DNA of 23,538 bases from a virus (Duplodnaviria > Heunggongvirae > Uroviricota > Caudoviricetes): IMG/VR virus record IMGVR_UViG_3300045988_147287; one strand, 5' to 3'. The translations under genes and the position numbers were made by a program. Below, piece by piece: positions 18,959 to 20,204 of the stretch (position 1 is its first letter; each line of letters opens with the position of its first letter). The notes beneath the pieces were generated by a model, which worked only from the letters and a program-made list of their open reading frames with translations, searched no databases and was not told the origin of the DNA.

Positions 18959-18979
18959 TAGAATACGTTAAAACTAAAG

Positions 18980-20071
18980 CTAAGGTTGTGTGCTTATGTT
19001 TTCTCTTATATTCGAGAAAAAATCGGAGATATCTCTGTTTTTCAGATTTAAACCTGCTTTGTTATTAAATTCAGATTCTAACGAAGGTGAGTTTTGAAAC
19101 GCAACGATAATTTGACATAAATAACTCAAAAGAGCTTCTTTTGGCATGGTGGTTTCTCTGTAATAATTAATAAATGGTTCTCCGAAGCAGAATATTCTAT
19201 CTACTATCTGCTTTTTCATTTGTGAGAGTTTTTGATTGAGTTGTTCTATTGTAGTTATGTTGGCTAGGTTTAAACCATTTAGTAGGTATCCCAAATCTTT
19301 ATCCTTGTATCGGCCATGTACTGTGATTCCTGTTTTTTCTTTTATCTCTTCTGAAAGTTCACTCATAACTCGACTTGTGTTTAAGAATTCATCCAAAGTG
19401 AAAATATCTAAAACTGAATCACTAGTTCCTTGCTCTAGTTCTTTTGCAACCTCTTTCTGCCGTTCAGAAATCTTTTTTCTGATTTTAATAAATTCATCAT
19501 CGGCCATTTCTAAAAGACCAGCTAAGCGTGAAAAGTATCTTCTTATTTCATTAGGCAGTCCTGTGGCCGACTTATAACCAATGTCGTGTTCAATCTCCGC
19601 CCAGGCATGCTGAAGGATTGATCGTATTTGTAATTCGGCTTTGATGTTTTTATATACTTCATATTCTTTTAAGTTTGTTCTGGTTGAGTTTAAAGTTACT
19701 ATATAATGAAGTGATAGGTAACCAAATTTATCAGGCGCAATTGAGGTTCTTTTATCAATAGAGTTCTCTTGGTCAATGGTGAACTCCTTTTCAACTATAG
19801 CAGCTATCTTATCAACATCATCAGCATAATGTGTGATGATCCTGATACCAACGATATCAGTAATATCATCTATAGACTTGTATTTTCCCTTTTTATTAAT
19901 CTTACCTTCAAGGCTTTTTTTTGTTTTAACTCTTGATTCAAGTGAGTGAATTGAAATTTTTTCATTGCGAATTAACGTGGTTAATAACGATTTAAGAGTA
20001 AGGGCATAGGACTCAAATTTATCTTTCCGTTCATCATAAGTAATTAGAATGTCTGACATGCGTGTATCCAT
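18980..20071 (-). CDS. RelA/SpoT-homologue synthetase-fold nucleotidyltransferase, likely toxic small alarmone synthetase (toxSAS) with C-terminal extension (CapRel-like fused toxin-antitoxin), 363 aa
   Basis: ORF-track start 20080 is TTG; ATG at 20071 has GGAG 7 nt upstream. Synthetase-domain motifs readable in the translation: SRVKTKKS, DIVGIRIIT (DxxGxR), GYLSLHY (YxSxH), ELQIRSILQHAWAEIEH (ExQxR[ST]..WAE..H). AT-rich, antisense to flanking late genes, no adjacent small antitoxin ORF. Confidence 0.75.
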   Translation of the reverse strand: MDTRMSDILITYDERKDKFESYALTLKSLLTTLIRNEKISIHSLESRVKTKKSLEGKINKKGKYKSIDDITDIVGIRIITHYADDVDKIAAIVEKEFTIDQENSIDKRTSIAPDKFGYLSLHYIVTLNSTRTNLKEYEVYKNIKAELQIRSILQHAWAEIEHDIGYKSATGLPNEIRRYFSRLAGLLEMADDEFIKIRKKISERQKEVAKELEQGTSDSVLDIFTLDEFLNTSRVMSELSEEIKEKTGITVHGRYKDKDLGYLLNGLNLANITTIEQLNQKLSQMKKQIVDRIFCFGEPFINYYRETTMPKEALLSYLCQIIVAFQNSPSLESEFNNKAGLNLKNRDISDFFSNIRENISTQP

Positions 20072-20133
20072 TGGCTCCAATTAGTGAGGATGTTTTTTTG
20101 CCAGTTAAGTAATCATTATATTCACTTCAAATG

Positions 20134-20163
20134 GAGTGTTGTGTCAACCTTAGAAAAACACTC
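20134..20163 (+). promoter_or_regulatory. Dyad-symmetry element upstream of V (candidate Ogr-type late promoter activator site, P_V)
   Basis: GAGTGTT-N16-AACACTC perfect 7-bp inverted repeat 42-71 bp upstream of the V start; includes TGTTGTGTCA shared with the P/O intergenic region. Confidence 0.45.
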
Positions 20164-20204
20164 TTTTATTGTTCTCATCAGTTCTCAGCAGCATGCTAGA
20201 TCTT

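Follow-up and report, generated by a model that had tools for sequence, protein, structure and literature searches.

A P2-like prophage carries, between its tail genes S and V, what is best read from its sequence as a one-gene cargo ('moron') cassette encoding a small alarmone synthetase (SAS) fused to a family-specific sensor or regulatory domain, which probably acts as an anti-phage switch. We give this reading a probability of about 0.55.

If the gene is such a switch, the enzyme would sit inactive in the lysogen, either through its C-terminal domain or by forming an inactive oligomer, as other SAS enzymes do, and would become active once the C-terminal domain detects a sign of superinfection, which may be a protein of the phage or one that infection releases. 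The active enzyme would then move pyrophosphate from ATP to an acceptor, more likely a purine nucleotide, yielding (pp)pGpp or (pp)pApp and draining ATP and GTP, and less likely tRNA 3' ends. This would arrest growth and abort the infection, protecting both the lysogen population and the resident prophage.

A one-gene cassette in the S-V slot

Coordinates are those of the window, i.e. the whole stretch of 23,538 nucleotides that was analysed:

18447..18899, plus strand: tail completion gene S, left flank (Phage_tail_S)
18924..18951, plus strand: GC-rich hairpin, terminator (12-bp stem, -29.4 kcal/mol, z -4.2)
18925..20204, no strand: whole S-V variable cassette (homology to empty-slot peduoviruses ends at ~18924 and restarts at ~20203-20205)
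18980..20071, minus strand: SAS-family gene, stop codon included (RelA_SpoT Pfam match; full-length phrog_9640 match)
18983..19429, minus strand: C-terminal domain, residues 215-363, acidic, nine helices, proposed regulatory or sensor module
19430..20071, minus strand: RelQ/RelP-like pyrophosphokinase core, residues 1-214 (sequence and fold matches)
20072..20204, no strand: divergent intergenic region of 133 bp (read from sequence)
20205..20840, plus strand: baseplate spike gene V, right flank (Phage_base_V/Phage_spike)

The initial annotation described an AT-rich antisense ORF between tail genes S and V, and the ORF, its low GC content and both flanking genes are all seen. The cassette (~18925-20204) has a GC content of 33% (0.32-0.39 over 18800-20200, with flanks at 0.55-0.61) and occupies only 1.3 kb, its own regulatory region included. 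The minus-strand ORF (18980..20080) encodes 366 aa from a TTG at 20080 or 363 aa from an ATG at 20071. A further start, ATG 20059, gives 359 aa, is the one called by RefSeq and falls in the start column common to most homologues; 359 aa is more likely than 363 aa to be the protein length. Gene V probably starts at ATG 20205.

Residues 2-363 match positions 1-365 of the 365 in the profile of phrog_9640 (E 3.2e-198), a phage protein family of unknown function. The PADLOC candidate system PDC-S33 is also matched (E 8.7e-17), partially, since only profile positions 48-237 of 349, corresponding to the catalytic half, are covered. Nothing specific was found in the literature on PDC-S33, on this synthetase family or on an S-V hotspot with RelA/SpoT cargo.

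The S-V slot is empty in most peduoviruses and contains orf30 in P2. The earlier statement that P2 has a small, variable ORF at this position is right as to the slot but not as to the size, because orf30 encodes 261 aa. The defence hotspots given by name in the P2 literature searched are gpA-portal and Z/fun, and one paper adds a less populated tail-gene hotspot; the S-V slot was not found named as a defence hotspot in the P2 hotspot literature searched.

The hairpin at 18924..18951 terminates the upstream late (O) operon behind gene S; the P2 annotation shows a terminator at the corresponding position. It lies 29 nt beyond the stop codon of the minus-strand gene. It had been described as a strong bidirectional terminator (18925-18958); the hairpin stands, but not its bidirectionality, because its T-rich tail is on the plus strand only. 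Likewise, of the proposed divergent promoter region, the 133-bp divergent intergenic region is present, but scanning the minus strand of 20072-20204 for the sigma-70 consensus returned no promoter. By eye, the minus strand shows a perfect TATAAT (20120->20115) and a perfect TTGACA (20147->20142) separated by a 21-nt spacer. Furthermore, a TGT...ACA dyad (20140-20160), centred ~55 nt upstream of V, matches in position the activator site of the late V promoter in the P2 annotation.

No co-oriented small ORF that could be a separate antitoxin occurs in the cassette and no conserved neighbour gene was found across 79 related loci from at least nine phyla, in agreement with the initial annotation, which had noticed no antitoxin ORF nearby. 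A type I or type III RNA antitoxin was also considered but is not supported: the cassette has no tandem repeat array, only a 10-mer in two copies at 20171-20191. The sole Rfam match in the cassette is a sub-threshold miRNA.

A predicted RelQ/RelP-type catalytic core

The gene had been proposed to encode a RelA/SpoT-family SAS on the basis of the motifs DIVGIRIIT, GYLSLHY and ELQIRSILQHAWAEIEH. All three are present in the translation, and the profile search suggested along with this proposal confirms it: the Pfam RelA_SpoT profile matches residues 46-169 (19565-19936) with 76.9 bits for a cut-off of 27, far beyond chance, and the catalytic motifs are retained. Among the aligned homologues, 49 columns are invariant, all within residues 42-197; they include D72, G117-Y118, E146, Q148 and R150.

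Residues ~1-214 are thus predicted to make up an entire pyrophosphokinase core of the RelQ/RelP type, in which the catalytic Asp (D72), the G-loop Tyr (Y118) and the catalytic Glu (E146) are intact. Searches of PDB sequences matched RelQ/YjbM/RelP with E-values of 1e-15 (single sequence) and 8e-18 (profile) and reached residue ~207. In the predicted structure, which is confident (pLDDT 92.5), the core comprises a long N-terminal helix (3-36), the alpha/beta catalytic fold and, at 174-214, a helix of 41 residues. Foldseek aligns it to RelQ/RelP with TM-scores of 0.75-0.78, and the RelQ/RelP alignments span residues ~20-210, both long helices included. The G-loop reads GYLS (Leu) in the family and GYRS (Arg) in the aligned B. 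subtilis YjbM (5f2v/5dec) and S. pneumoniae 2be3. Comparison of the window with the allele of Escherichia sp. MOD1 gives a dN/dS of 0.04 for the N-terminal domain, indicating strong purifying selection.

A predicted acidic all-alpha C-terminal domain

The C-terminal extension had been estimated at ~170 aa. The extension itself is confirmed but measures ~150 aa (residues 215-363), because the synthetase core takes in the long helix 174-214. As modelled, it is a family-specific, fast-evolving, acidic, all-alpha domain of unknown fold. Its pI is 4.9, its acidity being modest (net charge -6 over 153 residues), and each of the 16 homologues sampled also has an acidic C-terminal domain (pI 4.6-6.2). 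No structural relative was found in the PDB, and a fold search of viral predicted structures with this domain returned nothing.

Column identity is 21-37% in the C-terminal half versus 54-82% in residues 41-200, within the enzyme half. In the comparison with the MOD1 allele, the dN/dS of the C-terminal domain, which is based on 11 substitutions, is 1.15 versus 0.04 for the N-terminal domain (Fisher p 0.0055); relaxed constraint could also be the cause of this high value. Furthermore, in the S88 and 317 alleles all 5-7 replacements fall in the C-terminal domain.

Across the 978 clusters of the family, the domain is present only in the synthetase-fused architecture. We looked for its shuffling onto other effectors and found none: the shorter matches have the same architecture but lack part of the N-terminus, and two long matches in several stretches are coiled-coil noise.

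Distribution and genomic neighbourhood

The gene occupies the S-V slot in 14 of 5426 complete E. coli genomes. Thirteen of these copies are intact; the remaining one, frameshifted by the loss of 1 nt at codon 50, carries a pseudogene annotation. P2-like prophages of Klebsiella and Serratia carry homologues in the same slot (55% and 49% identity, respectively). The whole family comprises 978 clusters at 50% identity and is found in at least 592 species-level genomes from many phyla, with full-length homologues of 350-375 aa conserved across phyla.

Some of the relatives lie on mobile elements or among defence genes. For instance, a homologue adjoins the CI repressor in a Shewanella prophage, and another is the sole cargo of a 3.5-kb ColE1 plasmid, next to rop and an HTH gene. 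A Bacillus island carries a homologue together with Abi_C, McrBC, a type I R-M system and RES, and the immediate neighbours of other relatives include GajB, a DRT reverse transcriptase, AriA/Toprim, MADS and PDC-S01. Many relatives adjoin housekeeping genes, and synteny is stable in some lineages (e.g. with FTHFS in Streptococcus). Therefore, defence may not be the only role of the family.

Alternative explanations

The gene could instead be a non-immune alarmone synthetase used for lysogenic conversion, tuning host (p)ppGpp for stress tolerance, persistence or stable lysogeny, with a C-terminal domain that would sense a metabolite or a host factor. The nearest solved relatives are indeed physiological (p)ppGpp synthetases, and the lineage-stable housekeeping surroundings of many relatives and the breadth of the family point the same way. 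However, the gene is patchily distributed in E. coli, and it and its relatives sit in cargo slots of prophages, in defence islands and on a very small plasmid, all of which fits a gene of conflict better; a replacement-rich C-terminal domain also suits such a gene better than metabolic sensing. We therefore regard a purely physiological role as unlikely.

Another explanation borrows from PANGU but dispenses with a dedicated partner. The protein would form an inactive RelQ-like tetramer, its acidic C-terminal domain would mimic DNA, and a DNA-binding protein acting in trans would break the tetramer and start (pp)pGpp synthesis. The trigger would be host YejK or another nucleoid protein freed by phage degradation of the chromosome, or a phage DNA-binding protein. 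PANGU is a two-gene operon whose partners co-evolve, type I consisting of Pag1A, a YejK-like protein, and GRel/Pag1B. The outline of GRel/Pag1B, namely a synthetase domain, a long helical linker and an acidic C-terminal domain (bioRxiv 10.64898/2026.04.06.716658), is shared here by helix 174-214 and the pI of 4.9 (4.6-6.2 in relatives), a comparison made with Pag1B by description only. The acidity of all sampled homologues and the alignment of the core, with both long helices, to tetrameric RelQ/RelP are consistent with this explanation. Moreover, the Pag1B synthetase domain alone does not inhibit in vitro transcription-translation and no construct is toxic in cells (bioRxiv 10.64898/2026.04.06.716658); therefore, a C-terminal domain fused to a synthetase does not have to act as an antitoxin.

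Against this, no YejK-like (NA37) gene occurs in the window, in the neighbourhoods of six homologues or among the 149 ORFs examined that flank 74 loci, and no nucleoid-protein gene was found beside more distant plasmid and phage homologues. A split or adjacent PANGU partner was sought, also in the other hotspot of the window (6525-9629), and rejected: the three cargo ORFs of that hotspot contain no NA37/YejK, and none was found near the relatives. The gene thus lacks the two-gene operon structure of PANGU. It also lies outside the GRel subfamily according to the 2011 classification, in which the orthologue from E. coli S88 is not gRel, and the acidity of its C-terminal domain is modest. Hence, a PANGU-like mechanism appears rather improbable.

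The initial annotation favoured a CapRel-like fused toxin-antitoxin. In a true member of that family, the N-terminal domain would pyrophosphorylate tRNA, the C-terminal domain would plug the ATP site as an in-cis antitoxin and a phage major capsid protein would release it. The fused architecture is borne out: a single ORF of ~360 aa has an N-terminal RelA/SpoT domain, a variable C-terminal half that is its least conserved region and no antitoxin gene, and it is carried by a prophage, as is CapRel SJ46 (PMC9712102). CapRel (7ztb) is also among the Foldseek matches (E 2e-6). The family label, on the other hand, has to be withdrawn. CapRel SJ46 is matched with E-values of only 0.21 (phmmer) and 0.0097 (profile) versus 1e-15 and 8e-18 for RelQ/RelP, and the rmsd of the Foldseek match is 15 A, meaning that the alignment is limited to the synthetase fold common to both. 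Table S of Atkinson 2011 lists the S88 orthologue as divRel (unplaced), not capRel, the name gRel being given to other genomes in the same table. Match ranking and this classification both point to a catalytic domain outside the CapRel/PhRel clade. Furthermore, the antitoxin of CapRel comprises a pseudo-zinc-finger (a three-stranded beta-sheet and a helix), anchors and a YXXY motif, and the C-terminal domain found here is not homologous to this ATcapRel/ATphRel module. Sequence rank, published classification and C-terminal fold thus rule out membership in the CapRel family, and we consider a CapRel-type mechanism very improbable.

Finally, that the gene is a decaying or inert passenger with no current function, as the single E. 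coli pseudogene might suggest, is scarcely credible given the dN/dS of 0.04 in its N-terminal domain, the 13 intact copies out of 14, the full-length homologues across phyla and the confident predicted fold.

Possible significance

Toxins of the alarmone-synthetase type are increasingly recognised as part of bacterial immunity. To our knowledge, only two sensing solutions are understood in alarmone-synthetase immunity, the CapRel pseudo-zinc-finger and the PANGU nucleoid protein. The family described here couples the most housekeeping-like synthetase core to a different domain of unknown fold, and it is very widespread. We tentatively raise the possibility that it represents a third mechanistic class of this immunity: a stand-alone RelQ-like enzyme, probably oligomeric, with a fast-evolving acidic all-alpha sensor of unprecedented structure, which would be controlled neither by autoinhibition through a pseudo-zinc-finger, as in CapRel, nor by a dedicated nucleoid-protein activator, as in PANGU. 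Such a class would extend over at least nine bacterial phyla and be carried by P2-like, lambdoid, filamentous and mycobacterial phages and by small plasmids.

If the gene is an immune gene, it would offer a new phage-sensing module to decode and a case for how a (p)ppGpp-type enzyme stays silent without an antitoxin, and the S-V slot would join the named P2 defence hotspots. Natural alleles that differ only in the C-terminal domain and the 1.3-kb size of the cassette make these proposals directly testable.

Comparison with known systems

Like CapRel SJ46 (PDB 7ZTB, 9ERV), the gene is a prophage-borne single ORF of ~360-370 aa that encodes an N-terminal RelA/SpoT-type pyrophosphokinase, with a C-terminal half far more variable than the N-terminal one and no separate antitoxin gene. 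However, its catalytic domain is only a distant relative, and the predicted acidic nine-helix C-terminal domain differs from the beta-sheet pseudo-zinc-finger, anchors and YXXY plug of CapRel. It is also a prophage-encoded RelA/SpoT-family enzyme like FaRel, FaRel2, PhRel2 and PhRel (Gp29)/Gp30 of mycobacteriophage Phrann, whose Gp29 excludes superinfecting phages (PMC7229694). PhRel, FaRel, FaRel2 and PhRel2 belong to two- or three-gene operons with separate antitoxins, whereas no partner gene is present here.

By description, the protein resembles GRel/Pag1B in having a helical linker between a synthetase domain and an acidic C-terminal domain; alarmone synthesis is likewise the likelier chemistry for a RelQ-like core, and an anti-phage role through growth arrest is plausible. 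Unlike PANGU, which needs an adjacent YejK-like gene, it has none, nor do its relatives, and unlike GRel its S88 orthologue is divRel.

As an antisense, AT-rich, non-essential cassette in a polymorphic P2 slot, it compares with P2 orf30, old/tin and Z/fun. It shares exactly the same S-V slot and orientation with orf30, old/tin and Z/fun being in other slots, but its protein is unrelated to those of these P2 genes, of which orf30 (phrog_2407) has no known function.

The closest relatives of the enzyme itself are RelQ (SAS1/YjbM) and RelP (SAS2/YwaC). These are core chromosomal genes of Firmicutes encoding ~210-230 aa with no extra domain, whereas the gene described here encodes an additional domain of 150 aa and occurs as rare cargo of prophages, and its G-loop reads GYLS, unlike the GYRS of YjbM and 2be3. 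Nevertheless, RelQ/RelP are the top match in both sequence and fold across the entire core: the catalytic residues are kept, and the aligned terminal helices are those that form the RelQ/RelP tetramer interface.

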